A stretch of 63,881 bases of DNA, counting the filler, from Folioceros fuciformis (lineage: Eukaryota), in assembly GCA_049999805.1 (NCBI GenBank). It is 5 parts of 5 records of this genome, joined end to end, with 100 filler letters (N's around TTAATTAATTAA, not from the genome) between each part and the next. Parts side by side here need not be neighbours in the genome. Positions count along the whole stretch, not along the records: positions 17,607 to 43,131 come from JBNGIO010005948.1; 4 more parts are not named here. The stretch is one strand, 5' to 3'. The translations under genes and the position numbers were made by a program. The notes under the pieces were generated by a model that saw only the letters and a program-made list of their open reading frames with translations, ran no database searches and was not told the origin of the DNA. Of the stretch, positions 16,800 to 39,604 are shown in pieces (position 1 is the stretch's first letter; each line of letters begins with the position of its first letter).

Positions 16800-17506
16800 C
16801 TTGCTGTGGATAAACAATATCTCGACCATCGTATTATCCTATATATCCTGGGATATACTTAGAGCATTCTTAGTCTAGATGTTGTTGTTATAAAACCCTA
16901 TGGGTTTCTAACACTCCCACTTAACACATCGACGATTTAATCTTACTCAATTAACCTTAACATCTTGCTAAACTTCATATGCTTCTCTAAGGTTAGATTT
17001 TTGGTAAGAACATTAGCAAGCATATGAAGGATCATGGAAGCTACATGGTGAAGGAGGAGAAGAGGAAGCAAGGAGGAGAAGAGGAAGCAAGGAGGAGAGG
17101 AGAAAGAGAGGTCACACCCTCACATAGAGTCTCAATATGGAAGGGAGCTCAAGGGGATATTTATACCCTCTAGAAGAGCTCCTTAGGAAGCTTCCGACAG
17201 ATTAGCTTAAGCTAATATAAACTAATGGTACTTAACTAGACACTAATCTCAGACTAAACATATTAGTCTAAGCACATTGGGCTTTAATAACCCTACAACC
17301 TCCCACTTAAAGGCCAATTTACCTTCATAGGAGAGTGGTCTACCTCATGCCTATGAGTGTCCGAGCTTGTGCGAATTGCTCCGAAGAGAGCCCCTTGGTA
17401 AGAATATCTGTAGGGTTCTGACTAGTATGAACTTTGATAAGCTGCACCCTTTTGTCTTCCAACACCTCTCGAATGAAGTGATACTTTACTTCCACATGTT
17501 TGGTCT
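16800..17506 (-). mobile_element. Two stacked Ty1/copia 3' ends (RNase H end, PPT, LTR start)
   Basis: TKHVEVKYHFIRE...NPTDILTKGL (17506-17340), PPT AAGTGGGAGG then TGTAGG; a second LANVLTKNL...* (17020-16943) with PPT AAGTGGGAG then TGTTAG. Lower boundary approximate. Confidence 0.8.
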
Positions 17507-17606
17507 NNNNNNNNNNNNNNNNNNNNNNNNNNNNNNNNNNNNNNNNNNNNTTAATTAATTAANNNNNNNNNNNNNNNNNNNNNNNNNNNNNNNNNNNNNN
17601 NNNNNN
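17507..17606. other. Artificial contig linker (also 43132-43231, 56865-56964, 62148-62247)
   Basis: N44-TTAATTAATTAA-N44, a stop in all six frames, identical at four sites. Plain 100-N gaps occur at 12432, 46810 and 54814. Confidence 0.95.
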
Positions 17607-18707
17607 TAGATAGGTTCAAGCTCTCAGATGCCCGGCCTGCCCCAACACCACTTTCAGCTGGAATCAAACTCACCTCAGCTGACAGCCCCACAACTGAGGT
17701 AGAAAAGGAGGACATGGCCAAGGTCCCTTACCTTAGCGCTGTTGGCAGTCTTATCTACTTGCATGGTTGGACACGATACGACATTTCCTATGCTGCCTTT
17801 AGTGTAGCACAGTTCATGTCTAATCCTGGCAGGGCACACTGGATGTGCGTGAAGAGAATCTATCGTTATTTGAAGGGCACAACTCACCGTGGAATCACCT
17901 ACAAGAGGTCAAGTAACGGAGTGCTTAACTTTGAGGGCTGGTCTCATGCCGACTGGGCATCAGACCCTGATGCTCGTCGAAGTGTTGGGTCTGATGCTCG
18001 TCGAAGTGTTGCAGCCTATGTTTTCACGCTGGGAGGATCAGCTGTACCATGGTCAAGCAAGAAGCTTGCCACGATTTCTACACCTAGTGCTGAAAGCGAA
18101 TATGGAGCCCTATCCAAGGCCGAAAAAGAAATTGTACACTGCAAGCAGATCCTTGAAGATCTTGGCTACCCACAAGCTGACCCCACTGTTCTACACTGTG
18201 ACAGCACTGCAGCTATTGCTTTAACCAAGGGTGACAGATTTCACGCTAGAACAAAGCACGTAGAAGTTGCTTATCACTTTGTGAGGCAGCTTGTAGCGAG
18301 AGGTACTGTCAAGCTTCTATACGTTCCTACAGAGTCTAACTTAGCCGACCTCCTCACTAAGTCGCTAGGCAAAGCCAAGCATGAAGCACTCACTTCAGCC
18401 TTAGGCCTCGCGGACCTCAAGAACCTCATCTGATTCTTCATCTCTTACAAGTCTTTACAAGTCTGGATGCTAGAGCTGAGCGGGAGTAATGGAGTGAGCG
18501 GGAGTAATGGAGTGACAGTCCAAGACCCGTCACCAGCAGCTCTTCATCCAAGAGGCATCAACCAACAGACATACCTCTTCACGTAGCCCCCTGCACAGAT
18601 TAAGGACACACACGAACGCTCAACATTGTAATTATCCCGACACTCAATGAAAGCACATATCCATCTTCAATTTAAATAGCAGCGAACGCCAACTGGTTTC
18701 CTCATCA
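17607..18707 (+). mobile_element. Ty1/copia RT/RNase H 3' end with PPT and probable 3' LTR
   Basis: VPYLSAVGSL, TRYDISYA, ADWASD, WSSKK, SAESEY, LHCDSTAAI, RTKHVEVAYHFVR, NLADLLTK; purine tract GAGCGGGAG after the stop; LTR end approximate. Confidence 0.9.
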
Positions 18708-21296
18708 GCAAGATCTAACCTTCTACCAAGACTGGGCCGACAGCTTGACGCTCTACGTGAACGATTCCTTAGGTGAGACAGTGTTGCGCTTTTGCACAAA
18801 ATTTGCAGCTGGTTATCCTGCTTGTGGAAGCCTTTGCTGGTTTCTGATCATGAGAAGCTGCTTCATATTGCCATGGCCTCAGTTTTCCAGATGGACAGCG
18901 CCAACCATGACGTGACGCAGGCTTGGACAGACAGCGACCTCGCCAACTGCTCCATCGTGGACATCACGCTCTATGTTACGAACGTCGCCAGTGTTGTGCT
19001 TCTTCTCCCGTTCGTTGGCACGATTCACCTCACCAGCAAAGGGAACACCACTACCAACACTAGTTCAGACTGCGTACAGGGAATGCGCTTTGCCGCCACC
19101 GTCCTGCCCCGGAACTTGCAGCAGTTTGTGTCATATGGGGCGCTCTCCCCCGGCGGTTGTAGTGGACTATTCCCCGGCGCCCATTTATACTACAATTGAA
19201 CGGAAACGTCAGTCAGATCCCAACTATTACGAGCACATCTTCTCCTCGAATCCCATGGGCAACCCCTCTGCGATTGGTACGTGCGCCTGGCCGAGTCTGG
19301 ATTTTCTCCCTCCCAACAAGCTCGAGTTGTTGTTGGCCCTTGTGGTGTCACAGTTAGAGTACTTGTGGTGGCCTGATGAAGGACTCGCTGCCCACCTTTG
19401 TCTCACTCCACTTCAGCCTTCAACTTCACGGTGAACGAGAACAACGTCCTCTGGGTTAGCCAATCTGATTTCGACTCTTGCAACGTCTCCAGTCAGCCGC
19501 TGGGTAACTTCAGCGTGCCCAACACTGTCATTCCTCTAGGAGCACACGGGGACACGTACTATTATATTGATGGAATCGGAGATAACTGCGAGAATGGCCA
19601 CATGAAGCTGAAAGTGCAATTGCAAGTGGGTACGTTTTCTGGAAACTTCTTTCACCTCGCCTTGCCTTGCCTTGCCTCATTATTCTCCTCTGAAGTTGCA
19701 CGCTTGCAGTTGGTATGCTGAACCTCTCTGTGGCGGATGCGCCTGGGCTCTGGCAGGTGATGGCAGCCCCGAATCCGGATCCAGTCCCAGTCGCAGTCCC
19801 AGTCCCAGTCCCGGTGGGGGGGAGCAGAGAAAGAAGTTCCCATTGACCGGTAAACCCATCTTGCTTGCCGTCCATGGTTTTTCTGGACCAGTACTGAAAT
19901 ATAGCAATCTGTTCCGGTGGTTGCAGTTGTGATAGCGACCGTCGTCAGCATCATCTTCATTCTTGTGCTAGTTCTTTTAGCCATAGCTTTTCGGCACTGT
20001 CGGCGGCAGCATGGATCTATTCCCAGAGGCAGGTATCCAGAACGTCGTTTTCTGACCAGTGAAGAAGTCAGGAAGGCTCATTATGCCTCGGCTGCCATCG
20101 GCTTTTGAAGGGGCATGCTAGTGGACTCGGAGCCGCATTCACCGTCTTCACCTATGATGAGCTGAAGCGAGCAACAAAACGTTTCTCTGCAGACAACGAG
20201 GTTGGGAGAGGAGGGTTTGGCACAGTGTACAAAGGAACTCTGGATTATGGCACAACCGTAGCCATTAAAATGGCAAAGCATGCCAGTCATGTGGAGTCCT
20301 TCGTAAACGAGGTGGCCATCCTCTCACAAGTGAACAACAGGAATCTCGTCAAGCTTCTGGGTTGTTGCGTCTAGGCGGACGTGGATCCGCTTCTTGTGTA
20401 CGAGTTCATTCCCAATGGGAGTTTGCAGGATCACCTATCAATAGCACAGAAGGGCTTCCAAACCAGGCTTGACTGGAAAGCACGGTTCAAGATTGCTTTT
20501 CAAACTGCTGAGGCACTCAAGTACTTGCATGTTCAGGCAACACCACAAATCGTCCATAGTGACGTGAAGTCTGCCAACATCCTACTAGTCGACCACCTTA
20601 ATGCCAAAGTTGCGGACTTCGGGCGTCTAAGCTGGTGGATTTGGGAACCACACATGTGTCCACACTTGTGAAGGGAACTCCTGGCTATCTGGATCCGGAA
20701 TACTTCCACAACTTCCAGCTTACGGACAAGACAGATGTGTACAGCTTTGGGGTTGTGCTACTGGAGTTGATCACGTCCAAGAAGGCGATTGACCTTTCAA
20801 ATCCTGTTGGGGAGCAGAACCTTGCTGTGCGGTCAATCCCCTCCATCAAGAGTGGGCGGGTCCGTGAAATCATTGACTCGAGTGTGTCGTCGTCTCTGTC
20901 ACGAGAGGCGTTCCAAGAAGTTGAGGCAGTTGCAAGGGTGAGTCACTTAGCTGTCAGGAGACGTTCAGTTAAGCTCAGAGGAGAAAGGAAACCAACCGTC
21001 TGTGGTGGTAGGTAGCGGTGGCATGCCTGGTGTTGTCACGATCATCAAGACCGACGATGAGCCAAGTCGTGGAAATGCTGCAAAGGATCAAGGGGTCCAA
21101 CCTTAAGGCTGAGGAGTTTTACAACCAGGTGGATCTTATCCCCAGTGATTGGAGGACAAGTGAGATGCAAGCTCATGGCATCTCGTCTACAGATTCCGCG
21201 TCAACATCCACCCGAACTTCTGTCCGGGAATCGGAACTGGTGCAGAGCCGATCAGACCCAGATGACAGTTATGACCTGGGAGAATTTTCAGCTTGA
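18708..21296 (+). pseudogene. Receptor-like kinase with two phytocyanin/ENODL-like ectodomains, Pro-rich stalk, TM helix and WAK-like non-RD kinase; disrupted
   Basis: FYQDWADSLTLYVNDSL|VFQMDSANHDV...NC...DCVQGMRF; FNFTVNENNVLWVSQSDFDSC...YYYIDGIGDNCENGHMKLKV; TM VVIATVVSIIFILVLVLLAIAF-RHCRR; kinase [48 protein letters not shown]. Stops at 19197 and 20372; frameshifts at ~19210 and ~20623. Confidence 0.8.
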
Positions 21297-21959
21297 TCAG
21301 TGCCGGAAGTCAGCGCTTGCTGGATTTCAAACACCTCGCTATCGCAAATTTGAATCCCCCTCAGGCGTGCTCAACAGTTTCGAGAATCGTTTACTTTGTG
21401 ACATTCAGGCTTATCGGACTACAGGGTAATGGAGGAGTTTGGCACTCTCGATGTAATGCTGATATTTCTGCCCACCCTTGAACTCATTTTGAAGAATTGA
21501 GGTAGACCCTACATTGCAATGGTATAAGATCATGTGATTGCATACTTTCTGCAGATATTTACTTTCCCGACGAAAAGAACGGACTCGTGAGGCGGTTTCC
21601 AGGTCAGATCTGTCGGTCGGACGGCAGCGGGTGTAATTTTCAGAAGACCTGTAGCACAAAAAATCTCCTACCGCAGGATCCAGATTGCTGCGATGGCAAG
21701 TCTCAAAATAACCAAGCTGCAAGAGCTTGATAGCTTTGAAACGCAGCAATGGAGGGCGTTCGCAAACCACATCTCCCATTTGCAAACTATGGTTACTGTT
21801 GTGCACTTTCCATCTCCAACGAAGCGAGCACCCCCCCACCCCGATCTTCCGCTTCCAACTTGCGAGAGTAACAGATCTTGGGCCATCGGGCTGCATGCTC
21901 TGTGATCGAGGGAAATCGACTTAGAACAGATACGATCAGATGACAAAATCTGTTTGTGC

Positions 21960-22420
21960 ATCGACAAACCGAGGATATTGACACCTTCACTGGGCACATA
22001 GGTAAGCATATACTGTATCTCCTTCCCTGACACACCTTTCCCAGGTCACACCTGTCACGAGTGGGCGAGGGAGTGGGCCAGGAGGCCCTTCATGTGTGCA
22101 ATACACACTATGAAGGAGAAAGGCATGATGGCTGCACCTAGTGCAAGTGACACATACTGTATTTGAGCCGTCCTCCTGCAGGTAGAGTGTGGATGCGCAA
22201 ACCAGGCCGGCTATCATGGCAGTCTTATCCCCACATTTTCTTCGCCAAACACTGTCTGAGCTGAGCTTCTGTTATCTTCCAAGCTGCCATACTTTGCCTT
22301 CGTACTCAACAAACTGCTGGCCACAAGCTATCTGCCTAAAAGCTCTCGCTGTCTAATCTCTACACGAAGGTCGTACCCCTCTCCACTTGCCTGCAGGAAG
22401 CAAACAAGGAGACACCAAAT
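21960..22420. pseudogene. Scrambled PPR fragments in both orientations
   Basis: Plus strand: GQEALHV...MKEKGMMAAP. Minus strand: LVASSLLSTKAKYGSLED...TAMIA. Both resemble the PPR genes at 28-34 kb. Confidence 0.5.
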
Positions 22421-22865
22421 GGTTTGTACTAGTGCCTCCTCGTTGCACAGCATTGGAGAGATGGAGGGGTTCCTGCACCAGACCGTGCGGGGAAGCACTG
22501 CAAACAAGGCATTCCAAGTTTCACACTGTTTTGAGCAAAGTCCGTCAGAGACTCCCGAGCATTCTCCAAGCTCCCACGCTCAGTATACATGTATACAAAA
22601 CTTCTGCCCCAGAAAACATCAGCCTCAAGTGCTCGTTCCCGAACTTCAGGAAGCATGCCGATGCTTCCTCTTTTTCGAGGCTACGGTGCTCAAAATCGCA
22701 CGTGCCTGCTCAAACTGCAGGAGTGGGTGTTTCAGGTTCGCTGGGTTTCGCCTCAGGGCCACAGGTTGGGATATGTGAGAGCGTCGACGGAACAAACGTC
22801 CATGATGCCATCGGAGTGGGCTGCCATTTCAGCATCATGAAGTGGGAGCGTTTGTGCTTCCCCAT

Positions 22866-25800
22866 ATGATGCCCACGGAGAGGCAGTTAGACAAGGCACT
22901 GGTTACTCTGTTCCGAATCGACCAAGAACGATGTGTGCCCTCGGCGCTGGTGTACACGAGCTTGTGGCAAGCGGGCAAGCGCAGGAAGGCCGTTGCCGAG
23001 GCCCAGCAGGTGTACGCTCATGCGACAAACCATGGGTTGGAGTCCCACAGGCAAGTGGGCGACCTGCTGGTGTCCGCACCAGTCAGTTGTGGGGGCCCTG
23101 CAGACGGGATTCAACTGTTCCAGAGATTGTCGCACCCATCATTTGCTTCTTGGAGAGCAATCATGCCAGGGTATGGCAATGCTGGATTGTCTGGGGTGGC
23201 CTTACTGTGCTATGGAAGGATGCTACAGGAAGGATTCGAGCCAGACCCTGTTACATTCGTCAGCTTGCTTAAGGCATGTAGCAGATCGGAAGATCCGGAG
23301 GAGGGTTGGCGGATTCATGCTCAAGTTGTGGCAAGTGGGCTGGACTCGGATGGGCTCGTTGGGAGCAGCTTAGTTGACATGTACGCCAAGTGTGGGAGCA
23401 TAGGGGATGCCCGGAAGGTGTTTGACGGCCAGTACCAGCGAGACTTGGTGGCATGGAATGTGATGCTTGCAGGATACTCTCAGAAGGGACATGGGGAAAT
23501 GGCAATGAGGGCGTTTCGTGAGATGCATCAAACTGGAGTCAAGCCGGATGCACGGACGTTCGTCAGTGCCCTTCAAGGATGTGGAAGCTTAGCAGAAAAG
23601 GAGGAAATGACGTTTGTGGATGGAGAGCAGGTGAAGCTGGAAGCCTTGAAAGTGGGAAGAGAGTTACACGCTGAAGCAGTGAGAAGAGGGTATGTCTCCG
23701 ACATGTTTGTTGGCAACACACTGGTGAGTATGTATGCAAAGTGTGGGAGCTTTGCTGATGCCGAGGAAGCATTTGATGGACTTGCTCAGCGCAATGTAGT
23801 TTCATGGAATGCAATGCTGTCGGCATATGCTCAACAGGGCAGAGGGGAAAGAGCTTTGCAGATCTTCCTGCAGATGCGAGAGACGGGAATTAGTCCAAAT
23901 GCTCGAACATTTGTAAGTGCCCTCCGAGCGTGTGGTAGCATTGCAGAAAAGGAGGAGATTGCAGCTCTGAACAGCCGCAATGTGAAAGTACAGTGCCTGC
24001 GCAAGGGGAAGGAAATCCATGCCAGAGTCCGGGATGGGGGTTTTGAATCCAACAAGTTTATTGGTAGTGTCCTGGTTAGTATGTATGCAAAGTGCGGGAG
24101 CATCAACGATGCTGAGGAGGTGTTTAAAAGTTTGCACAAGCGTGATGCGGTGGCATGGAATGCCATGATACGAGGATATGCTGAGGAGGACCAAGAAGAC
24201 AAGGCTTTGCAGGCCTACAGACGGATGGTAAGGGAGGGATGCAGGCCCGATGCGCAGACATTTGTAAGTGCTCTTCATGCATGCGGGTGCCTTGCAGCAA
24301 AGGAGGAAAGCACCTCGGTACATGGGCAGGATGTCAAATTGGCATCCCTGCGAGAGGTAAGGGAATTGCATGCAGGAGCTACAGAATGGGGGTTTGATTC
24401 TGACACCTATGTTTGCAACTCTTTGCTTAGTACATATGCGAAGTGTGGGAGCATTCAGGACACAGAACTGGTGTTCGAACGAATGCCCAAACGAGGTGTG
24501 GTGTCATGGACTTCCATGATCGCAGCGTATGCCGTGCATGGCGCAGGAGGTAGGGCCCTCCAGGTGTTTAAGCAGATGCAGAAGGAGGGTGTGAGGCCGG
24601 ATGCACGAACCTTGGCCAGTGCTCTTCATGCATGTGGAGTTGCTGTTGAAAAGGAGGTGGTGTCATCTGAGGATGAGCAGAGCGTGAAGCTGAATTATCT
24701 TCAAGTGGGAAGAGACATACACGCTGAAGCTGCAAAACTGGATTTGGTTTCTGACGTTTTTGTCGCCAGCAATCTGGTGTACATGTATGCCAAGTGCGGG
24801 AGCATTAGAGACGCAGAGCAGGTGTTTGACGGAATGTCTCAGCGTGATGCTGTGTCGTGGACTGTCATGATTTCAGCGTATGCTCAGGAGCAAGGAGGAC
24901 AGGCTTTGCAGCTCTATGCCCAGATGCAAGCAGAAGGAATGAAGCCACAGGAGGCTACTTTTGTGTCAGTTCTCCAAGCGTGCAGCAGCACAGGAGCATT
25001 TGACACGTGCGTCCAGACCCACCAGGCCATTGTGGACAATGGATTGGAATACCGTCTTCCTGTTGCCACTTGCCTCATTCATGCGTACAGTAAGTGTGGG
25101 AGCATGGTGGAAGCCCAACGTGTCTTTGACTCCCTACCTGGCCCCGACGTCATCTCATGGAATGCCCTTCTGGCAGGCTATGCCCGGCTGGGCGATTGCA
25201 ACATGAGCGTCAAGTGCTACGGCCAAATGTTACAACGTGGCTTGAAGCCAGACAGAGTCACATTCCTGGGCCTCCTATCTGCTTGCAGCCATGCTGGACT
25301 AGTTCATAAGGGGCTTGAGTACTTCGAAACTATGTCCAGGGAATACAGCATCTCTGCAGACATGGAACATTACGCTTGTGTGATGGACCTCGTCGGTCGA
25401 GCCGGTCTCTTCAACAAAGCTGAAATGCTGCTCTCCCAGATGCCAATTGAACCTGGTTTGCCAGTCTGGTTGTGCCTGCTGAGCGCCTGCCGAAAACACG
25501 GTAATATTGTCATGGGAGAGCGGGCCTTTGCTGAAGCAGTAGGTGAAGATCCTGAACACGCTGCAGCCTATGTTCTCATGTCAAACATTTACCTAGATGC
25601 TGGCATGTTGGATTGTGCGAGAAAGGTAGATGAGATGAGGCAAAAAGCAGTTTCCTGGAAGAAGCCTGGCCAGAGCTGGATCTTTCATGACAAGCAGATG
25701 CAAGTATTTTTGGCGGACGATTGCAAACACCAACAAGCAGCCATACTGTATGAGATATTGGAAAATGTCGGCGTACAGCTAACTAAAGCTGGGATGACTT

Positions 25801-25928
25801 CAGCTGCATCGAGGCGAGATAAGGGTGTCGCGCAGTCTCCAGACACGTCTCCGCCCGTCCATGCTCTGGCAGTAGCAGCAGGTTCCATGGAGGTTTCCGC
25901 AAGCTTCCAAACCAAATGCATTCTGTAG
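22866..25928 (+). CDS. PLS-class PPR protein, E+ type (PG box, no deaminase core), with long inserted L motifs
   Basis: Repeated P-L-S triplets (SLVDMYAKCGS, VAWNVMLAGY, PDARTFVSALQGC); E1/E2 (HYACVMDLVGRAG, AAAYVLMSNIY); KKPGQSWI; no HxE/CxxC. True start uncertain. Confidence 0.92.
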   Translation: MMPTERQLDKALVTLFRIDQERCVPSALVYTSLWQAGKRRKAVAEAQQVYAHATNHGLESHRQVGDLLVSAPVSCGGPADGIQLFQRLSHPSFASWRAIMPGYGNAGLSGVALLCYGRMLQEGFEPDPVTFVSLLKACSRSEDPEEGWRIHAQVVASGLDSDGLVGSSLVDMYAKCGSIGDARKVFDGQYQRDLVAWNVMLAGYSQKGHGEMAMRAFREMHQTGVKPDARTFVSALQGCGSLAEKEEMTFVDGEQVKLEALKVGRELHAEAVRRGYVSDMFVGNTLVSMYAKCGSFADAEEAFDGLAQRNVVSWNAMLSAYAQQGRGERALQIFLQMRETGISPNARTFVSALRACGSIAEKEEIAALNSRNVKVQCLRKGKEIHARVRDGGFESNKFIGSVLVSMYAKCGSINDAEEVFKSLHKRDAVAWNAMIRGYAEEDQEDKALQAYRRMVREGCRPDAQTFVSALHACGCLAAKEESTSVHGQDVKLASLREVRELHAGATEWGFDSDTYVCNSLLSTYAKCGSIQDTELVFERMPKRGVVSWTSMIAAYAVHGAGGRALQVFKQMQKEGVRPDARTLASALHACGVAVEKEVVSSEDEQSVKLNYLQVGRDIHAEAAKLDLVSDVFVASNLVYMYAKCGSIRDAEQVFDGMSQRDAVSWTVMISAYAQEQGGQALQLYAQMQAEGMKPQEATFVSVLQACSSTGAFDTCVQTHQAIVDNGLEYRLPVATCLIHAYSKCGSMVEAQRVFDSLPGPDVISWNALLAGYARLGDCNMSVKCYGQMLQRGLKPDRVTFLGLLSACSHAGLVHKGLEYFETMSREYSISADMEHYACVMDLVGRAGLFNKAEMLLSQMPIEPGLPVWLCLLSACRKHGNIVMGERAFAEAVGEDPEHAAAYVLMSNIYLDAGMLDCARKVDEMRQKAVSWKKPGQSWIFHDKQMQVFLADDCKHQQAAILYEILENVGVQLTKAGMTSAASRRDKGVAQSPDTSPPVHALAVAAGSMEVSASFQTKCIL

Positions 25929-27459
25929 GATCTCGCAAAAAGACCTTTCAAGAGTCTGAGTTTTCTTCTTCAAGAGGTAAGAAGACCCGCCAGCCGTGCG
26001 CCTGTGGGCGTCCTGCTCCTTATCAGCTGCAAGTGAGATCGAAACTGCAGCACCGGGTCTGGGAATCTGCATCGCCGCTATCACCTTCATTTGTAGACAA
26101 GGATGGTGCCAGTCTGGTGGAGCTGATTCTTGCTGACCATGTTCTTCTTTGCTTATCTTCTGAACTGATGGGCCTCCGCAAGCAATGGTGTCTTGAGAAC
26201 GGATCTGATTCAGGATTCGACAGAGAAGCTCCCTTCTCCATCTGCGCCGCCTTGTCACTATTAGAAACAACAATTCCTACATTTTCCTTTTTAGAAGTCA
26301 TTCCTTTCGCACCGCAGGCAGAGTCAACCATTTCAAACCGTATCTTTTATCCAAATACTTTCCAAACGTTCCTAGTATCTGGAGCAGGAATGTATGTGTG
26401 CACAAAGCCGTAATTCAAACCCTTTAATGTCCTGCAACCTTGTCTCGACTACTGGATAGTGAGATTCTTTCAGTCTATCGATCATTAGCAATCCTTTGGT
26501 GGTAACTCTTTTGATCATGAAGAGCCCTTTCCGAGAAGCTGTTTCCCTGTCTACGTACTAGAACATTTGGTGGTAACTCTTTTGTTCATGAAGAGCCCTT
26601 TCCGAGCAGCTCTTTCATTGGCTACAGCACGAGAGGATTGCATGATGGATCCAAGACTTGCATCTTCTAACTTTGCTGAAGATTCTCGACAGTGAAAAGT
26701 AGGTTCCATCGACCATGATCTGATCTTTCTCTTTTTTTTCTTTTGCGCCAGGTTTCTTTGCCGAATTTGCTGACGGTTCTCGGACGGGGAGAACTTGTGC
26801 TTCGCATTGCCAATGCAAATGGAGCACGGCAAGGGATCATGCCTGATGGGTCTATTTCGTAATAGGACCTGTCTGGAGTGGGCCATCGTGTACGAGAGAA
26901 AACTAGTAAAACCCCCGTCACACCCTGTCGGAAGATCTCCTCCTGGCCTAACTTCAAGGAGAGAAGGGCTGGCAGTGGGACTCGGTAGTTGCAGCACCTC
27001 GGTAAGCGAGCCGGCTCGTCCAGCTGGATGTTCCGGCTGTTCTGGCTCAAACAAGCAGTGACGGATATCTTCTTGTGAAACAAGATATACCAGCCAGCTT
27101 GGGCTGATGCGCGTATGTTGGGTGGGTTGTTGCCGTGCACGTTGCATTTCTGCCGAACTCATGTCTGCCATGTCATGCTGGTAGTCTCTGTCTGGAAGAT
27201 ATGGTGCAGACCGACCGTCGTATTCCAGTTTGTCTCTTTTAAACTGTTCTGAAGAAGTGTGTGGTAAAGAGGGATCTTGTTCTGGCTAGCCAGGTCTGTG
27301 CTTTCGATCTGAGGAACGCGTGCCAATCAAACATGTACCGAGGTTTACACTTCCTGCCAATGAATGCTTCTCTGGCAGGTTGCAAGACGCAAGAGATTGT
27401 TTTACCCGGTTTCCGATGTGTTAGCCTTCACGTGGGCTGCCATCATCCCTGCGGATGTT

Positions 27460-28100
27460 AAAACATGGAGAAGACAAGCGGGCCTGGTGGTGGTGACAAA
27501 GATGTAGTGACCTGTAGGTAGTGCCATGATATTAGAGCTGATTCTGTGACGTATTTGTGTCTCCTGCAGGTGTGTGCAAGTGCGAGCACCCAGACGTTAG
27601 GAAAGGGGAAGCGTGTTCATTCACAATAGAAGGGAACGAGGATGTGAATCTGCTGTCATTGTGGCCAATATTTTGCGAAGTCAGTATCTATGAGAATTTT
27701 GGCAGCTTAGAGGATGCGCAGACAGTGTCCAATTGGCTTGGTCGGAAGGTTGTGGTGTCACGGAATGCCATGATAGCAGCGTATTCCCCAGCAGGGCATG
27801 GGCTAGGAGGTCTTCATACCCACAGGGCTATGCAAGGAGACTTGCAAAGCTGTACGTGATTCCATGATATTTGTTTGCCTCCTACAGGTTTGGGTACTGC
27901 AGCCCTCGATAAGGGAAAGCACCTGCATGCAGAATTCGGGAACGAGCCCTTGAAGCTTATGTGTTTGTAGGCAGCAGTCTTGTAAACGTGTATTCCTAGT
28001 GTGGCAGCTTGGAGGATGCTCAGAGAGTCTTTGATGGACTTGCTCAGAGCAATGTGGCAACATGGAATGCCTTGATAGCGGGGTATTCCCAGCATAATCT
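27460..28100 (+). pseudogene. Degenerate PPR fragment
   Basis: FGSLEDAQTVSNWLGRKVVVSRNAMIAAYS, GTAALDKGKHLHAE, CGSLEDAQRVFDGLAQSNVATWNALIAGYSQ, with stops and shifts. Confidence 0.8.
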
Positions 28101-28266
28101 TCGAGTTGGCATCATCCGACGGGAAGGGTCGCTAGGGGCATCGCACGTGCAGCATCGGGTGATAGATGCGCAGGCATGATGTACCAGCGATGACGGGGTT
28201 GAGGAGGTTAAGGCAAGATATTCCAATTAGAGCTCCGAATGAGCTCGGAGCTTGTATCCATTGGCC

Positions 28267-30200
28267 ATGGGTGACGGGGTAACGGATATTGCAAGCAGAG
28301 CTTTCGCTTGCCTGACTTCGAGGAAGCAACAGTTGGCGCACAACCAAGTCGGGAGGGCTTGTGCCATAGCAAACAAGCTTTCCTGTCTAGCAGAATTTCT
28401 GGTCGACGACGGATCTTCCAGGGAGGGACAGATCTCTCCTCCTGTGAACCATAGCAGGGTTCGGGGAACCGAGCAGGCCGTTACAGCTGAAACCGTGATC
28501 ACGCTGTGTCATGAGGGCCGCCTCACGGATGCTGTCGACGCCTTGGAAGCTTTGTTGCAGGCAGACTGCACCATTTCCAGGACTCTAGTAAACACAGTGC
28601 TGAAGAGACGTCTGGTGGCGAAGGATCTTGCCCTGGGGAGCCGGGTTCATGCTTTCGTGGTGAGAATGGGATACCAGACGGACACGTTCCTTTGCAATCA
28701 CATCCTGCGGACGTATGCGTCACACGGCAGGTTGCAAGATGCGATGGATGTGTTTCAAGTAGTGGCTAAACCAGATGCCTTCACTTGGTCTGCAATCATC
28801 TCAGCGCATGTCAAACTTGGACAGGACAAGCAGGCCATAGAGCTGTATTATCGGATGCGTAAGTCCAGTGTCGAGCCTGATGGGCATGTGTTTGTAGCAG
28901 CCCTGCAGTGTGTGAAGCTGGAGTGGTTTTTGCCAACAGTTTGATAAACATGTATGCAAAGTGTGGCAGCTTGGCGGATGCTCAGAAAGTGTTTGATGGA
29001 CTGGTGACGAAAGATGTCGTGACGTGGACTGCTATTATGGATGTCGTGACGTGGACTGCCTTAATAGCAGCGTACTCCCAGCAGGGCATGGGGCATGGGC
29101 ATGAAGCCCTGAGTATCTGCAGTATTATGCAAGAAGAAGGCGTGGCTATACCCAATGACGTGACATTTGTGTGCCTTCTGCAGGCATGTGCAAGTGTGGG
29201 GACCATCCAGGCGTTGGAGCCTTCGGAAGCATCTTCACAGGCAGGTTACAGAGCAAGGGCATAGCAGTAACATTTTTGTAGCCAGCAGTTTGGTGAACAT
29301 GTATGCAAAGTGTGGCAGCTTGGACGATGCACAAGAAGTGTTTGAAGGACGTGATAAGGAGAACGTTGTGACATGGAATGCAAGGATCGCAGCATACTCC
29401 CAGCAGGGCAGGGCCACGAAGCGATTCGTCTTTATAGTGCTATGCAAGCGAAAGGGATAGTCGTGCCCGATTGTGTGACATTTGTGGGTCTCCTGCAGGC
29501 ATGCGCGAACGTGGCAGCTCTTGCCTGGGAAGGCAGCTGCATGCACAGATCTTAGAACTAGGTTTTCAAGCTGATGCGTTCATAGCGGGCAGTCTTGTAA
29601 ACATGTGGGAAGTGTGGGAGCATGGTGGATGCACAACAGGTGTTCGATACGCTGCCAACAAGGAACCTTTTTGCGTGGGTGCATTGATTGCAAGCTACAC
29701 CTCTCAAGGTAATAGTGACGTGATGTTTGACTTGGTGGAGGGAATGAGAGCGGATGGCATACGGCCAGATGGCGTCACATTCCTCAGTATACTAACGGCA
29801 TGCAGCCATGCGGGTCTGGTGAAGAATGGGTGGGAGTACTTCGATGCGAAGAGCAGACCCTACAGCATCACACCTACACAGAACCACTACACTTGCATGG
29901 TGGATCTCCTGTGCCGTGCAGGGGAACTGGACGAGGCACTGGCTCTTATAGGATCAATGGTTGTGTTGCCTAATGCTCATGTTTGGCACACTCTGTTGGT
30001 GCCTGCCGAAAGTGGAGCAACGTGGAGGTGGGACGCCATGCTTTCAATGAAGCTATGAAATTAGACACGAAAGATGCGGCAGCATTATGTGCTAATGTCC
30101 AACATATACACAACCGCCCAGATGTGGGACCAGGCCCTACGGATGCAGACAAGAAAAGCGGAGAGTGCGTGGAAGCGGCCAGGTCAGAGCTGGTGGACAG
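28267..30200 (+). pseudogene. PLS-E PPR pseudogene, paralog of 31326-34025
   Basis: Same N-terminus (AHNQVG, LCHEGRLTDAVDALE, DTFLCNHILR, KPDAFTWSAIISAHVK) but split over at least five ORFs by frameshifts; E motifs and a decayed KRPGQSWW remain. Confidence 0.9.
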
Positions 30201-30787
30201 GCTAAGCTGGTTGGCGATGAGAAGCAACCCTAGAACCCTCTTGTCATGCATTGGCCCCCATCAGCTGCAAAAGCTGTGTGGATGTTGCGGCATAACTAAG
30301 AAAGACGCATGGTTACCACGTACTCAGCGAATGCACCGCATTTGGCAAAGGAAACTATACAACTTTGAGCACTTTGGACTTTTATCTAATTGCCGCAATG
30401 TGTCTAGACATACGTACGTCAATGTATCCCACATGTCGGCGTTTCTAAGCCAACAGGTAAGGCGTGTGAGAGGAAACGTCTTCCTCCTGACCATAGATGA
30501 GGCCGGCGGATCACGGAATATGACTGCTGCCTCCTGCTGACAAGGAGGTGATTAGTGAAGGAGGCTACTGGACATGCTAAGAACAGGCTTATAGAGGATC
30601 CGCTCGGAGGTCCGTTTAGGAAGCAGAGCTCGTGCTACTCTTGCTCCTTTTGGAAGTCCCTGTTCGTGGATAGAGTGCTGTAGTAAGTGGTGAGCAGAGT
30701 GCATCTCCTAAGCTGAGGATCGCCAGAATATGTACGTACGAAGGAGAAGCAGCCTCCAAGTGACCTCGGCTTTCATATTATCACAAC

Positions 30788-31050
30788 GTCGTCCTCTGCA
30801 TCTGGCTCACAAGGAGCAGCCGACCCTTGGCCTAAACCTTTTGCGGCAGCTCGCTGCATGCACCACACCGTCCTCCTCTGCATCTGGCGTACCAGGAGCA
30901 AGCCGACTCTGGCATAGACCTTTTGCAGTAGCTCGCTGCATGCACCACACCGTCCTCCTCTGCAACTGGCTCACCAGGAGCAGCCGACCTCTGGCCTAGA
31001 CCTTTTGCGGCAGCTCGGGGCATGCATCACACCGTCCTCCTCTGCATCCA
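30788..31050. repeat. ~80-bp tandem repeat, about 3.3 copies
   Basis: Recurring CCTTTTGC(G/A)G(C/T)AGCTCG..GCATGCA.CACACCGTCCTCCTCTGCA. Confidence 0.85.
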
Positions 31051-31108
31051 TCTGGAACCCTAACTCTTCATCCGCTGCCCGGAACAATGACGCGCAGCGC
31101 TACGGTGG

Positions 31109-31255
31109 CCCTTGGGGCCAGCCCTCTTCCACCTAGCCACCTCATAGTTTCCCATTCCAAGTGCATGGTGTATGGCTTATTCCCTTGGGGCCAGCCCTCT
31201 TCCACCTAGCCACCTCATAGTTTCCCATTCCAAGTGCATGGTGCATGGCTTATTC
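31109..31255. repeat. ~73-bp direct tandem duplication just 3' of the PPR stop
   Basis: CCCTTGGGGCCAGCCCTCTTCCACCTAGCCACCTCATAGTTTCCCATTCCAAGTGCATGGTG(T/C)ATGGCTTATT twice. Confidence 0.9.
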
Positions 31256-31325
31256 CATCTGTTTTTCCCATAAAGTCTCTAATCGTCTTTAGGCTCGTTC
31301 CATGGTATGCAGGTAGTTGGGACAC

Positions 31326-34025
31326 CTACTTCTCATCCCCAACCAAAAAACTGTGCAACAGGCCGTCCTTGTCTATCCACCAGCTTTGTCCTGGCTGCTT
31401 CCATGCCTTCATTCTTTGCCTACTCACCTGCATCTCCTCTGCCTGTTCCCACATCTGGGCACCGGAGTATATGTTGGACATCAACACATATGCCGCGGCG
31501 TCCTCCTCCTCTCGCTCACCTACCTGACTGAAAACATATCGCCCCACCTCCAAGTTGCCCCACTTTTGACAAGCACCCAACAGAGTGTGCCAAACCGCAG
31601 CTCTGGGCAACATTGGCATTGACGTTACGAGAGCTAGTGCCTCATCCAGTTGTCCTGCACGGCCCAGGAGGTCCACCATGCACGTGTAGTGGTCTTCAGT
31701 AGGAGTGATGCCGTAATGGGTGCTCATAGCCTCAAAGTACTCCCACCCCTTCTTCACCAGACCCTCATGACTGCATACTGTCAAAACACTGAGAAGTGTG
31801 ATGCTGTTCGGCCTTATACCCTCCTCTTCCATTCTTTGGAGCAGGCCGAAGACCATGTCACTCTTTCCTTGACAAGCGTAGCCTGCAATCAGTGCGCTCC
31901 AGACGACAACGTTTCTTTCGGACAACGCGTCAAACACCCTCTGCGCATCAACCATGCTCCCGCACTTTCCATACATGTTAATCAGACTCCCAGCTATAAC
32001 CACATGGGCTTCAAGCCCTTGCTTCAGTATCTGTGAATGCAGCTGCCTTCCCAGAGATAAAGCTGCCACATTTCCACATGCCTGGAGGAGGCATGTGAAA
32101 GTCACAGAATCGTGAACAACCATGCCTTCTTCTTGCATTGCACGGTAGACACGAAGCGCTTCCTGGCCCATACCCTGCTGGGAATATCCTGCTATCATGG
32201 CAGTCCACGCAACCACATCCTTTATACCAAGTGCATTGAACACTCTCTGAGCGTCTTCCAAGCTGCCACACTTTGCATACATGGTTAGTAAGCTGCTGGC
32301 TACGAACGCATGAGTTTCAAGTCCTCGTTCTCTAAGCTCAGCATGAAGGTGCTTACCCGTCTCCAAAGCTGGGGTACCGACCTTTGCACATGCCTGCAGG
32401 AGGCACTCGAATGTCACAGCATCAGGTGCAGTAAAGGCTTCTTGCATAGCAGGATAGAGGCGAAGGGCTTCCTGCCCCATGCCCTGCTGCGAATATCCTG
32501 CTATCATGGCATTCCATGTCACCACATTTTTCTGCGCAAGGCCATCGAACAGTCTCTGAGCATCTTCCAGGCTGCCACACTTCGCATACATGTTCAACAA
32601 ACTACTGGATACAAACACATCAGTGTCATGTCCTCGCTCTCGCATTTGCGCATGTAGTTGCCTCCCCATCTCTAGCGCTGAGGTGCCCACGCTTGCACAT
32701 GCCTGCAAAAGGCACATGAATGTCACGGAGTCGGGCACGGTAGTGCCTTCTTCTTGCATAGCAGTATAAAGGGATAGGGCTTCCTGGCCCATGCCCTGAT
32801 GGGAGTATCCTGTTATCATGGCAGTCCACACAACCAAATCTTTTCTACTAAGTCCATCGAACACTCGCTGAGCATCTTTCAGGCTGCCACACTTGACATA
32901 CATGTGCAGTAAACTACTGGCTACAAAACGATCGGCTTCGTATCCTCGTTCCCTAGCTTGAGCATGAAGATGCTTTCCCTTGTCCAACGCTGGTGTTCCC
33001 ACACTTGCACATGCCTGCAGAAGGCACACAAACGTAACAGAGTCAGGTGCTGCCATGCCTGCTTCTTGCATAGCACTGTACAGACTAAGAGCTTCCAGCC
33101 CCATGCCCTGCTGTGAATATCCTGCTATCATGGCAGTCCAAGTAACCACATTTTTATGACTGAGCCTGTTGAACACACCCTGAGCATCCGCCAAGCTGCG
33201 GCACTTTGCATACATGTCCACCAAGCAACTAGAGACAAACAAATCACGCTCCCTGCCACTGGCCAGTACATCAGCATGCACCTCCTGCCCCGTTTTCAAG
33301 TCTGCTGCCTTTGCACAAGCCTGAAGTGCTGCGACAAACACATGGCCATCTGGCTTCACACCGGATCTGCGCATCTGCTGATACAGTTGTATGGCCTGCT
33401 TGTCCTGGCCATGCTTAACATGCGCAGAAATGATGGCAGACCACGTGAAGGCATCTGGTTTGCCAACAGCTTTAAACACATCCATGGCATCACGCAGCTT
33501 GCCACGAGAAGCACAAATTCGCAAAATATGATTGCACAAAAACGTGTCTGCCCTGTAGCCCTTCTTCACCGTGCACGCGATAACGCGGCTACCCAGAACA
33601 CGATCTTTCTTTCCCACACATTTCCTCAGGACTGTGTACAGAACGGATTTGGAAACACAACGGTTCGAATGCACCAGATCTTCTAAAGCCTCTACAGCCT
33701 CTGTAAGATGGCCCTCGTAACACAGCTTGAGCACGCCTTCCTCCTCATGCGGTAAATTCCTCTTGGAGACGTAGCGACTCATGCCCACATCCAGAGAAAC
33801 CCCGAGGCTCCCTTCCTGACTGGAGAAGGAAAATCCTCGTGGAGAAGCGGACTCTGTTGCTAAAGTGGTGCACCTACCGGACCCGACTTGGTTGTGCACC
33901 AATGCTTGGGACTTGGTCACGACGCTACAGACAGGCATGGCTGTCATGAGTTTCACGGGCCGGTCATTGGGCACCACTCTGCATGCGCTGTTTTGGGGAC
34001 CCCAGGGATGCAAATCTTCCTTCAA
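31326..34025 (-). CDS. PLS-class PPR protein, E/E+ type, intact and intronless
   Basis: 899-aa ORF with regular P-L-S triplets, E1/E2 (HYTCMVDLLGRAG, DAAAYVLMSNIY), ending KQPGQSWWIDKDGLLHSFLVGDEK*; no DYW core. First ATG at ~33947. Confidence 0.95.
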   Translation of the reverse strand: MKEDLHPWGPQNSACRVVPNDRPVKLMTAMPVCSVVTKSQALVHNQVGSGRCTTLATESASPRGFSFSSQEGSLGVSLDVGMSRYVSKRNLPHEEEGVLKLCYEGHLTEAVEALEDLVHSNRCVSKSVLYTVLRKCVGKKDRVLGSRVIACTVKKGYRADTFLCNHILRICASRGKLRDAMDVFKAVGKPDAFTWSAIISAHVKHGQDKQAIQLYQQMRRSGVKPDGHVFVAALQACAKAADLKTGQEVHADVLASGRERDLFVSSCLVDMYAKCRSLADAQGVFNRLSHKNVVTWTAMIAGYSQQGMGLEALSLYSAMQEAGMAAPDSVTFVCLLQACASVGTPALDKGKHLHAQARERGYEADRFVASSLLHMYVKCGSLKDAQRVFDGLSRKDLVVWTAMITGYSHQGMGQEALSLYTAMQEEGTTVPDSVTFMCLLQACASVGTSALEMGRQLHAQMRERGHDTDVFVSSSLLNMYAKCGSLEDAQRLFDGLAQKNVVTWNAMIAGYSQQGMGQEALRLYPAMQEAFTAPDAVTFECLLQACAKVGTPALETGKHLHAELRERGLETHAFVASSLLTMYAKCGSLEDAQRVFNALGIKDVVAWTAMIAGYSQQGMGQEALRVYRAMQEEGMVVHDSVTFTCLLQACGNVAALSLGRQLHSQILKQGLEAHVVIAGSLINMYGKCGSMVDAQRVFDALSERNVVVWSALIAGYACQGKSDMVFGLLQRMEEEGIRPNSITLLSVLTVCSHEGLVKKGWEYFEAMSTHYGITPTEDHYTCMVDLLGRAGQLDEALALVTSMPMLPRAAVWHTLLGACQKWGNLEVGRYVFSQVGEREEEDAAAYVLMSNIYSGAQMWEQAEEMQVSRQRMKAWKQPGQSWWIDKDGLLHSFLVGDEK

Positions 34026-34255
34026 AGGTTCACCACATACCCTGTAGTTTTAGGACCTCCTCAAAGAAACATCTGTGGGCTGGGTCACAGTGATAATGCT
34101 GGGGTGGGTGTTGAGCTCTGCAGTTGTCTGGCGGGCCTACCCCCATCTCGTAAGTCCGACCTTGTCTCATGGCTATGCAAATCCAGTATGATGCTCTGAG
34201 AAGAAATGCATGGTATGTTTGTTAGCCACATAGCATCACTCCCATAACCAAGTTT

Positions 34256-35338
34256 ATGCCGAGCCTTTCGCTGCTGCGAGTGATGGATGGTGGCTTCACC
34301 AATAGCAGAGGGAGGGCTTCCACGAAGCAAGCGTGGGTGGGCATCTCCAGTGGATGTTCCAGCCAGATTCAGGGTGGTGGCTACGAGTGTTTGGTCAGGA
34401 GGGCGGATGGCGGATGGCGCATGGCGGATGGCGACAGGGTAGTTACGGCTGAAACTGTGAGCAAGCTATGTCTTAAGGGTCTCCTGGATCAGGCTGTTGA
34501 GGCTTTGGAGCTTGTAGTGCAGGCAGGCCATTGTAATGTCAAGTCTGTCTTATACACAATCCTCAAGAAATGTGTGGTGAAGACGGATCCAGTTCTGGGT
34601 AGCCGTGTTATTGCTTGCACAATGAAGAAGGGGTTGCGGGCAGACACTTTCCTGCGCAACCACATCCTACGAATGCATGCTTCGCAAGGCAGGTTGCATG
34701 ACGCAATGGATGTGTTTGAAGGCTTGTCCAAGCCAGACGCATTCACATGGTCTGCTATCATTTCTGCGCATGTTAAGCACGGACATGACAAGCAGGCCAT
34801 ACAACTGTATCATAGGATGCGCAGATCGGGTGTGAAGCCAGATGGGCATGTGTTTGTGGCAGCCCTTCAGGCTTGTGCAAGGGCAGCAGACCTGGAGTCA
34901 GGGCGGCAGGTCCATGCTCATGTGTTGGCCGCTGGCGTTGAGCCTGATATGTTCTTTCATGGCTGCTTGCTGGACATGTACGCAAAGTGTGGCAGCTTGG
35001 TGGATGCTCGACGTGCAATTAACGGGCTTCGTCGGAAAGACGCAGTGACATGGACTGCCATGATAGCAGGATACACCCAGCAGGGATTGGGCAGGAAGCT
35101 CTTGGGCTCTACAGAGGCAGTGAGACTAGAAGGCAACGATGCTGCACCGCATGTGTTGATATCGAACATATACACTAATGCCCAGATATGGAACCAGGCA
35201 GAGGAGATGCAAGCAAGGAGGAAACGAATTAGAGCTTGGAAGCAGCCTGGTCAGAGCTGGTGGATAGACGAGGAAGGACTGGTGCATAGTTTTTCGGTTG
35301 GGGAAGAGAATCATCCCCAGTGCCAATCACAAGCTTGA
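34256..35338 (+). CDS. Short PPR-E paralog with in-frame internal deletion (possibly a pseudogene)
   Basis: First motifs nearly identical to the divergent neighbour (ADTFL.NHILR, KPDAFTWSAIISAHVKHG), then jumps from YTQQGLG to E2 (DAAPHVLISNIY) and KQPGQSWW. Confidence 0.8.
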   Translation: MPSLSLLRVMDGGFTNSRGRASTKQAWVGISSGCSSQIQGGGYECLVRRADGGWRMADGDRVVTAETVSKLCLKGLLDQAVEALELVVQAGHCNVKSVLYTILKKCVVKTDPVLGSRVIACTMKKGLRADTFLRNHILRMHASQGRLHDAMDVFEGLSKPDAFTWSAIISAHVKHGHDKQAIQLYHRMRRSGVKPDGHVFVAALQACARAADLESGRQVHAHVLAAGVEPDMFFHGCLLDMYAKCGSLVDARRAINGLRRKDAVTWTAMIAGYTQQGLGRKLLGSTEAVRLEGNDAAPHVLISNIYTNAQIWNQAEEMQARRKRIRAWKQPGQSWWIDEEGLVHSFSVGEENHPQCQSQA

Positions 35339-36282
35339 TGAAGCACTAGTAGTCCCGATTAATAGAAGAAGGATATGAACTACAGCTGGGACTGTTGTTT
35401 TTAAGGGAAGCCTTGGGTCGCCAGATTGGTAGAGGTTGAGCGTCCGGAAGCGACTTCGACTGGCTGCATCTGTGCTACGAAGCTGTGGGTTTCTCCCTGT
35501 TTCAGGCACTTCCGGCGAAACACCCTGGAAGCCTCTCTCGATACTCGATTTCATCAGCATGCAAGCCATTGCCTGTTCCTCTGGTAACCAGCCAACTCCG
35601 AAATGACGTCCTTGTGTTCGTGGTGCAGTGATGTGCAGCTGTCTCGAACGATACATCTCCGGGGGATGCAACCATCTTCCGTCCACCACGCCTCTCGACG
35701 CAGGCAAAGGTGCCAGAGAGGTCGCGCAGGCATGCCGGGATGTACCCCTCCATGTGCCAACGCCAAGCCATGTGACTCTGCTTCACCCCGAGGCACTCGA
35801 TGTCTAGAGCTTCCTCGTGCTTCCCTAGCAGCCCCGCTGCTTGGAAGGTTTCAACAGCAGCATACATCTCGGCCTCCGCAGTCTGGTATTCTGCATTTGG
35901 AGGTGCAGCCAACAAGAGGAGCAGAACAGGACTGGGATGCCAAGGCCTGGGAACAGACTCCCAGCACACCGAACCGACAGATTCCAGAATGTGTGGCTGT
36001 GCTCAGCGTCCGTGTTTCCATCCTGGTATGATGCAATTCTTCGGCGCATTGTGATTTTGCCCTGTTTTGTTCTTTCCTTCAAACGGATTCCAGTCGCTCG
36101 TAATCACTTCCGGCCGCTTCGGCCAGAAAGTTAAATGAAGGTGGCGAGCCATACTGACGACACTCATTTCAGTTGCATTCATGCCTCGTAGGTGGTTGAA
36201 GAGCACTACATCGAAGCGAGATGGAAGGGACAGTACAACCATTGTTGACTCACAGCGGTCTTGGAATGCTGGAGCTCGACCG

Positions 36283-39580: not shown

Positions 39581-39604
39581 CTAAACCCTTAAACCCTGAA
39601 CCCC
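39581..39604. promoter_or_regulatory. Triple telo-box-like array upstream of ARP
   Basis: CTAAACCCTTAAACCCTGAACCC. Confidence 0.5.

Follow-up and report, generated by a model that had tools for sequence, protein, structure and literature searches.

In plants, the ectodomain defines the class of a receptor kinase, and most of the classes studied to date come from seed plants. Phytocyanins are stand-alone, secreted or glycosylphosphatidylinositol (GPI)-anchored single-domain proteins. The early nodulin-like proteins (ENODLs), of phytocyanin fold but without copper ligands and AGP-like, also stand alone and are usually GPI-anchored, according to the part of PMC11593715 that was available. As far as an excerpt of the text tells, a preprint on the receptor-like kinases (RLKs) of 528 species names Cu_bind_like among the Pfam domains "not reported in RLK-related literatures" (10.1101/2023.12.21.572927). 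Here, a locus of Folioceros fuciformis was analyzed in which the phytocyanin fold is joined to a kinase of the wall-associated kinase (WAK) group. The analyzed stretch of DNA (the window) has 63,881 nt and consists of five parts joined with 100 filler letters, with positions 17,607..43,131 coming from JBNGIO010005948.1. Between 18680 and 21296 on the plus strand, it encodes two phytocyanin-like domains, D1 and then D2, which are followed by a Ser/Pro stalk, a single hydrophobic membrane span, and finally an RLK/Pelle kinase. With a probability of about 0.75, we consider the locus to be a 5'-truncated, disabled copy of a single-pass receptor kinase from a family that combines a tandem copper-less phytocyanin-like ectodomain with a kinase of the WAK/WAK-like (WAKL) group and ranges from liverworts to ferns.

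The spliced model of the locus comprises seven exons and six introns of 70-140 nt, all with GT-AG borders. Its least certain parts are the acceptor at 20122 and both borders of the stalk exon, for which GT-AG sites were chosen to preserve the frame. The features are as follows.

18680..18772, plus strand: exon 1, N-terminal part of D1 (W...FYQDWA...VNDSL); matched by positions 22-47 of the family profile (E 2.6e-5) and in tblastn with the Adiantum proteins
18773-18882, plus strand: intron 1, 110 nt, phase 1, GT-AG, splitting D1
18883-19276, plus strand: exon 2, C-terminal part of D1, short linker and N-terminal part of D2
18883..19103, plus strand: C-terminal part of D1 (F.M..ANHDV...C...DC.QGM); family profile E 7.8e-7, D1 group in the domain tree
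19104..19196, plus strand: short D1-D2 linker with a +1 reading-frame change; stop of the D1 frame at 19197-19199, D2 in the next frame
19165..19276, plus strand: N-terminal part of D2 (IYTTIERKRQSDPNYYEHIF...), phase-1 GT donor at its end; aligned to D2 of the homologues, not significant with the family profile alone
19277-19416, plus strand: intron 2, 140 nt, phase 1, at a position homologous to the D1 intron
19417..19625, plus strand: exon 3, C-terminal part of D2 (FNFTVNENNV...DSC...YYYIDGIGDNCENGHMKL); Pfam PF02298, mavicyanin, umecyanin and family profile
19696..19849, plus strand: exon 4, Ser/Pro-rich stalk (...GSPESGSSPSRSPSPSPGG...); sequence reading
19927..20032, plus strand: exon 5, putative membrane span with 22 hydrophobic residues VVIATVVSIIFILVLVLLAIAF, followed by basic RHCRRQ; sequence reading
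20122..20937, plus strand: exon 6, kinase subdomains I-X; Pfam, tblastn
20938-21011, plus strand: intron 6, 74 nt, GT-AG
21012..21296, plus strand: exon 7, kinase subdomain XI (VAVACL...RPTMSQVVEML), Ser/Thr-rich tail and stop TGA at 21294-21296; sequence reading, tblastn

Exon 1 is preceded by an AG acceptor at 18678-18679, has an in-frame stop immediately 5' of it and contains no Met. In both D1 and D2, a phase-1 intron interrupts the homologous codon, one residue 5' of the F.F/F.M strand, which is the trace expected from tandem duplication of a two-exon unit. The hydrophobic span at approximately 19927-19992 gave weak matches to Pfam families of the membrane-span type (E 0.02-0.9), and its assignment comes from sequence reading. 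A CCCAGT-like hexamer microsatellite at ~19778-19815 encodes part of the stalk and reads as Pro-rich text in all three frames, so that stalk length may vary through repeat slippage. When the Calypogeia and Adiantum proteins introduced below were compared to the window by tblastn, they matched this single locus, in the order D1, D2, kinase.

An earlier note, made on this DNA from its sequence, had described the same overall organization, and every element it listed was confirmed. The motifs of the first cupredoxin-like repeat (Y..WA, VNDSL, HDV, C, and DC..GM) were located in 18680-18772 and 18883-19103, and those of the second repeat (NNV..VSQSDFDSC...YYYIDG..NC.NGHMKL) in 19417-19625; the Pro-rich stalk, single membrane span, WAK-like RLK/Pelle kinase, and HSD in place of HRD were also recovered at or near the positions reported there. 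The Pfam comparison it had proposed with PF02298 and PF07714 was positive for D2 and the kinase and negative for D1, which had no match at E <= 1.

The phytocyanin-like character of D2 was evident in two independent libraries. The piece at 19419-19625 matched Pfam PF02298 (Cu_bind_like) with an E value of 9.5e-9 and 35.6 bits, above the gathering score of 20.8, and in the search of PDB sequences it matched mavicyanin (1ws7, E 3.2e-6) and umecyanin (1x9r, E 3.7e-4). An ectodomain profile was built from three homologues, namely P0062 of Calypogeia fissa, P0066 of Adiantum capillus-veneris, and P0067 of Adiantum nelumboides. Against the six-frame open reading frames (ORFs) of the window, this profile found D2 at E 9.2e-13 and the two D1 exons at 7.8e-7 and 2.6e-5, with the next-best match at E 0.79. 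The assignment of D1 is supported by this homologue profile and by the domain tree. In that tree, which comprised 10 rows of single domains, D1 and D2 were split with support 98/99, and the window D1 fell among the D1s and the window D2 among the D2s; the branches are long, and the D1/D2 split is the informative point. By this tree, D1 and D2 are each orthologous between the window, the liverwort, and the ferns, and it follows that the tandem pair predates the split of the sampled liverwort and fern lineages.

The ectodomain of P0067 was itself similar in sequence to umecyanin (E 1.4e-7), stellacyanin (4e-7), and mavicyanin (5.5e-6), and in the structural comparison with a protein atlas its D1 was matched by the model of an ENODL6 cluster with a template modeling (TM) score of 0.82. 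An AlphaFold2 model of P0067, calculated from a three-row alignment, was unusable, with a mean predicted local distance difference test (pLDDT) value of 30.4 and a predicted TM score (pTM) of 0.23. The ectodomain modules of WAKs, GUB_WAK_bind (PF13947) and EGF, were found neither in the eight window pieces at E <= 1 nor in P0062, P0066, and P0067 at E <= 0.01.

The type-1 copper site of phytocyanins needs a Cys thiolate and a second His. The ligand positions were placed by alignment to stellacyanin, mavicyanin, and umecyanin together with the family alignment. In D1 of both the family and the window, the first His (HDV) and the axial Met (GM) are kept, the Cys is replaced by Met, Ser, or Thr (Thr/Ser in the window), and the second His is replaced by Asp; relative to stellacyanin, the ligand loop of D1 carries an insertion of 8 residues. 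In D2 of the homologues, the first His is kept, the Cys is replaced by Asp, the second His is replaced by Asn or Leu, and the axial Met (NMRL) lies one residue beyond the aligned N, while the window D2 has Asn for the first His, Asp for the Cys, Asn for the second His, and His/Met at the axial position. Neither domain has the full ligand set (His, Cys, His, and Met/Gln), and the window D2 keeps none of the four. The disulfide Cys pair, aligned to mavicyanin, umecyanin, and the homologues, is retained in D1 (...LANC... and ...SSDC) and in D2 (...FDSC... and ...GDNC). Judging from these alignments, both domains are in a copper-less, ENODL-like state, and the reading of the repeats as being of ENODL type, with the Cys pair kept and the copper Cys and second His lost, was upheld, with the additional loss of the first His in the window D2.

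That the cupredoxin domains bind a metal ion as a signal, making the protein a copper- or metal-sensing receptor kinase, is suggested for Cu_bind_like RLKs in the excerpt of the preprint 10.1101/2023.12.21.572927, and the first His and axial Met retained in D1 of the homologues and the window are compatible with it. Against it stands the replacement of the Cys (Met/Ser/Thr in D1, Asp in D2) and of the second His (Asp in D1, Asn/Leu in D2) in all members seen, and the absence of all four ligands from the window D2. With two of the ligands, the Cys and the second His, lost from D1 as well as from D2, a type-1 copper centre is unlikely, as is metal sensing through it, and we give this explanation very little credit.

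The intact relatives were found with a query of 170 residues from the kinase N-lobe, with the stop codon entered as X. Among the 120 proteins listed of 3644 with E <= 1e-10, PF02298 was present in three, and these were the matches with the highest single-domain identity. They are as follows.

P0062, Calypogeia fissa, a leafy liverwort: 737 aa, kinase 63% identical to the window
P0066, Adiantum capillus-veneris: 1057 aa, kinase 61% identical to the window
P0067, Adiantum nelumboides, a polypod fern: 706 aa, kinase 59% identical to the window

In each of the three, Cu_bind_like matches twice (67.8-75.4 bits), and a membrane span and a Pkinase domain are also present. Residues 1-360 of P0066 carry a match of the zf-C17orf113 type, a transposase-like foreign N-terminal fusion that is probably an artefact of the gene model.

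These proteins bear directly on whether the ectodomain and kinase might be separate neighbouring genes, or the cupredoxin likeness a product of chance, for which the missing Pfam match of D1 could be quoted. The identical order of domains recurs in predicted proteins of three other species; in the window, ectodomain and kinase are connected by the membrane-span exon, which has their strand and is flanked by short, frame-compatible introns; D2 is significant in two independent libraries; and the kinase clade agrees with the type of ectodomain. We find this explanation scarcely credible, and ectodomain and kinase are taken to belong to one collinear gene with intact homologues carrying both, in line with the fusion first proposed.

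Further members were sought by other routes. An exhaustive profile search, in which the full-length alignment was used and multi-kinase chimeric models crowded the best 150 rows, yielded P0144, with a D2-like domain and a kinase, and P0256, with one phytocyanin-like domain and a kinase. The ectodomain profile matched 5 of 263 proteins at E <= 1, including its own three seeds. When residues 20-330 of P0067 were compared with the protein collection, only the two Adiantum proteins were recovered among 3641 candidates, and among 8000 scored candidates from longer proteins the ectodomain profile recovered only its three seeds; in both cases Pro-rich words crowded the candidates, which makes these numbers a weak guide to family size. 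In the protein atlas, the top feature match of P0062 (0.99) was a cluster of 65 Streptophyta members that bears only the name "non-specific serine/threonine protein kinase"; all of its members (100%) have Pkinase, and 80% have Cu_bind_like. It may be the cluster to which P0062 itself belongs, and it was also a structural match to D1 of P0067 (TM 0.85 by query).

The kinase of the window was matched at 20111-20620 by PF07714 (E 3.5e-29) and PF00069 (E 4.2e-26), and at 20626-20937 by PF00069 (E 2.5e-7), and Pfam matches to further pieces extend to 21296. The Lys of VAIK, the alpha-C Glu, D..N, and DFG are present, the HRD position reads HSD (codons CAT AGT GAC, 20555-20563), and a TAG codon and a 1-nt loss interrupt the frame. 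The best named matches were WAK2-like and WAKL20-like kinases. A tree was built from 38 kinase rows. One clade, with support 100/98, contained the window, P0062, P0066, P0067, P0144, P0179, and both kinase domains of P0005; it sits among the WAK, WAKL20-type, and LRK10L-type rows, inside the WAK/WAKL assemblage, consistent with the WAK-like affinity first proposed. Within the clade, the window grouped with the ferns weakly (94/67). The root of the tree is uncertain, as two of the five intended outgroup rows (multi-kinase Paspalum models) are WAK-type domains inside the group, and P0054, P0055, and P0056 were left out because they had no full-length kinase match. Two members of the clade, P0005 (Calypogeia fissa, 639 aa, two kinase domains) and the kinase-only P0179, could be gene models that were cut short, or else receptor-like cytoplasmic derivatives of the family.

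The HSD motif had led the earlier note to connect the locus with non-RD immune receptors. A family with ancestral HSD, belonging to the pattern-recognition class, would agree with the motif of the window and with a rough census by regular expression, in which 45 of 446 WAK-group kinase domains were non-RD (HGD, HSD, HLD, and others), 290 had HRD, and 111 were unmatched. The relatives speak otherwise: HRD was found in all five ectodomain-bearing homologues (P0062, P0066, P0067, P0144, and P0256), in both kinase domains of P0005, and in the nearest kinase-only relative, and within the clade only the disabled copy was seen to be non-RD. From this comparison of sequences, HSD is a change private to the disabled copy or its immediate lineage and not a trait of the family. 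Since the class reads HRD, non-RD is not a class trait and the proposed link to immune receptors falls away; an ancestral non-RD family is very improbable.

In addition to HSD, four lesions distinguish the window copy: the 5' signal-peptide exon is absent, a +1 frame change lies in 19104-19196, an in-frame TAG occupies 20372-20374, and one nucleotide is lost at 20623-20625. Within exon 2, the frame of D1 closes at 19197, whereas D2 uses a different one. The TAG follows GCCV and precedes the (A)DVDPLLVYEF strand, a place at which the homologues align without gaps in tblastn, and the 1-nt loss falls at DFG | LSKLV, where the tblastn matches change frame at 20623/20626 without a gap in the query. 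After splicing, the +1 and -1 frame changes cancel, placing D1 and the kinase C-lobe in one frame and D2, the membrane span, and the N-lobe in another, which we take as coincidence. As a candidate alternative to the first frameshift, an intron at 19128-19212 (85 nt, weak GT-AG, donor gtgtca) was examined and rejected: although its splice sites are the only frame-compatible pair, it would delete the first strand of D2, which resembles that of the ferns, and the frameshift reading was therefore kept.

The 5' end was searched in two ways. For profile positions ~1-21 of D1, nothing better than E 12 was found in the six-frame ORFs of the window, and a motif scan of 13000-18680 for a first exon of the Y.VGG type gave four matches, one in a copia ORF and three without signal-peptide context. 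Two head-to-head, degenerate C-terminal fragments of copia pol were recognized directly upstream of the gene, at 17331..18433 (no strand assigned), by reading translated ORFs in which the C-terminal RNase H/pol motif of copia occurs; no long terminal repeat (LTR)-like repeat or other copy of 17331-18433 was found elsewhere in the window. As the copia fragments lie where the first exon of the receptor is expected, the 5' end may have been lost through insertion of a transposon or through a deletion. Lacking the start and signal-peptide exon and containing two frame changes and a TAG, the copy cannot make the receptor protein, and the locus is probably a pseudogene; the copy had been called broken from the outset, and the TAG, the two frame changes, and the missing 5' exon bear this out.

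Several observations weigh against the interpretation of the locus as a disabled member of a tandem phytocyanin-like receptor family. D1 alone matched nothing in Pfam at E <= 1 and nothing in the PDB sequences at E <= 10, and the homologues come from gene prediction and not from verified transcripts. The first frame change adjoins runs of C and could be bypassed by the weak 85-nt intron at 19128-19212. The runs of 100 N at 12432, 46810, and 54814 were taken as true gaps of a draft assembly. A second gene-like stretch, with pentatricopeptide repeats (PPR) at 28243-30537 (+), is spread over three or four frames as either a broken PPR gene or the product of local indel errors, and it bears on the trust to be placed in the frame changes of this assembly. 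Of the 167 kinase columns that are invariant in the family, defined as identical in three reference proteins, the window keeps 140 (84%), compared with 84% in P0144, 82% in P0179, 79% in P0005, and 74-75% in the WAKL20 and WAK rows. The kinase has thus hardly decayed, so the lesions are recent or some of them are assembly errors. Finally, the function proposed below for intact members is drawn by analogy.

A rival explanation is a functional gene, in which the stop and frame changes are errors of the draft assembly and the first exon was missed. Kinase columns are conserved as in intact relatives, all six introns have GT-AG borders, every catalytic motif except the R of HRD is present on sequence reading, and the assembly has gaps, a second gene-like stretch with frame changes, and a first frame change beside C runs. 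Against these points stand four independent defects within ~2 kb of coding sequence. The TAG is a base substitution and no indel, and the indel at 20623-20625 lies outside a homopolymer. Long intact ORFs of 3120, 2721, 1782, and 1263 nt (~8.9 kb in total) elsewhere in the window indicate that the assembly is not riddled with indels. In the 5.7 kb upstream, no signal-peptide or first-strand exon was found, and copia debris and genes on the minus strand are located there. A functional gene is accordingly held to be improbable, and the locus is treated as a disabled copy in what follows.

The surroundings of the locus are plant nuclear DNA, with PPR genes of the PLS/E type, HSP70, aldo-keto reductase, NmrA-like and FMO-like genes, and several copia elements. 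Selected features are given below.

2-856, minus strand: GyrA-type topoisomerase exon at the window edge
10707-11969, minus strand: aldo-keto reductase, single ORF
22806-25925, plus strand: PLS-type PPR ORF with E motifs, 1040 codons
31329-34049, minus strand: PLS-type PPR ORF with E motifs, 907 codons
34226-35335: PPR-E fragment
50924-52705, plus strand: HSP70, single ORF, match from profile position 64

The two PPR ORFs and the PPR-E fragment form a small PPR cluster beside the receptor relic, and the topoisomerase, aldo-keto reductase, and HSP70, all ordinary genes, show no evident connection with it. Pairs of 44-N runs, 12 bases apart, occur at 17507-17606 (17507-17550 and 17563-17606), 43132-43231, 56865-56964, and 62148-62247. 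Three of the four pairs lie in or beside matches to copia pol/reverse transcriptase and the fourth between matches of the copia gag type; these runs have the look of deliberate masking and not of gaps in the assembly.

The following function would apply to the intact members of the family. They would be type-I receptors exposing two N-glycosylated cupredoxin-fold domains in the cell wall, held off the membrane by Ser/Pro/Ala-rich, probably O-glycosylated linkers. D1 and D2 would form a binding surface for a wall glycan or polymer, a peptide, or a protein, with no redox or copper role, and occupancy would be passed through the single membrane span to the RD-type WAK-group kinase, which would relay the signal. 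Among kinases, the wall-tethered WAKs are the nearest precedent. For the fold, the nearest functional precedent is the GPI-anchored ENODL14, which binds to the ectodomain of FERONIA, as stated in the part of PMC11593715 that was available; the comparison of the ENODL14-FERONIA pair with the present receptors is one of analogy.

A broader proposal is that the family is an ancient class of land plants, older than the divergence of liverworts and ferns and maybe rare or lost in seed plants, in which an ENODL-type tandem is joined covalently to a WAK-group kinase and the copper-less phytocyanin domains are true sensor modules signalling through RLK kinases. We regard this as possible but doubtful. 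ENODLs are known only as GPI-anchored helpers of FERONIA-type receptors, and their natural fusion to a kinase suggests that the fold itself can perceive. If true, the family would provide a "Rosetta-stone" fusion, a cis-linked model of the partnership of ENODLs and receptor kinases in Arabidopsis pollen-tube reception. A copper-less phytocyanin-pair receptor conserved between liverworts and ferns would add to the known ectodomain classes one without a known ligand, which was not found in the standard catalogues that were consulted. The window contributes another lineage that once had a gene for a tandem phytocyanin-like receptor kinase; because its copy is broken, the value lies in the intact relatives and not in the locus itself.

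The expectation that the class is little described was supported: one sentence, in the excerpt of the preprint cited above, was found in the literature, and no dedicated study of Cu_bind_like receptor kinases was found there. The main text of a 2025 survey of fern immune receptors (PMC12512272) does not contain Cu_bind, plastocyanin, phytocyanin, cupredoxin, or copper. The earlier note could not confirm that the architecture is unreported, and it is not, given the 65-member Streptophyta cluster and, as far as its excerpt goes, the preprint list across 528 plant species. The architecture is catalogued but unnamed and unstudied. What is new here, as read from the sequences, is the tandem pair with orthologous D1 and D2, its own kinase clade in the WAK group, its copper-less state, and its occurrence in both a liverwort and ferns.

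Among known proteins, those of Calypogeia and Adiantum are the closest to the window. They share with it the order of D1, linker, D2, membrane span, and kinase, the same pattern of copper-ligand replacement, and a kinase of one clade with 59-63% identity. They read HRD, whereas the window has HSD, a TAG, two frame changes, and no signal-peptide exon. The D1-D2 linker of the window is much shorter than theirs, and its Ser/Pro-rich stretch separates D2 from the membrane span, where that of the Calypogeia and Adiantum proteins separates D1 from D2. These proteins carry automatic names ("unnamed protein product" and "hypothetical protein"), and no published class name was found for them.

P0256 (517 aa) is more distant. 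Its ectodomain of the Cu_bind_like type scored 19.8 bits, just below the Pfam cut-off, and E 5e-6 with the family profile, and it is followed by a WAK-group kinase. Unlike the window, it has one such domain only, and its kinase falls in another clade with Sphagnum-type WAKs; it may represent an independent shuffle or an old split.

Likewise single-pass type-I receptors, the WAK/WAKL proteins (WAK2-like and WAKL20-like) show 47-58% identity to the window over the 170-residue N-lobe and ~47-54% over the whole kinase. Their ectodomain consists of GUB_WAK_bind with or without EGF, in contrast to the cupredoxin fold of the window, and in the kinase tree the window clade is separate from the WAKL20-type, LRK10L-type, and angiosperm WAK rows. 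With the phytocyanins and ENODLs (mavicyanin 1ws7, umecyanin 1x9r, and stellacyanin 1jer), the window shares likeness of sequence and fold, the disulfide pair, and Ser/Pro-rich, probably glycosylated linkers, and the loss of copper ligands in D1 and D2 is shared with the ENODLs. Unlike the stand-alone, GPI-anchored ENODLs, the window locus joins two phytocyanin-like domains to a membrane span and a kinase.

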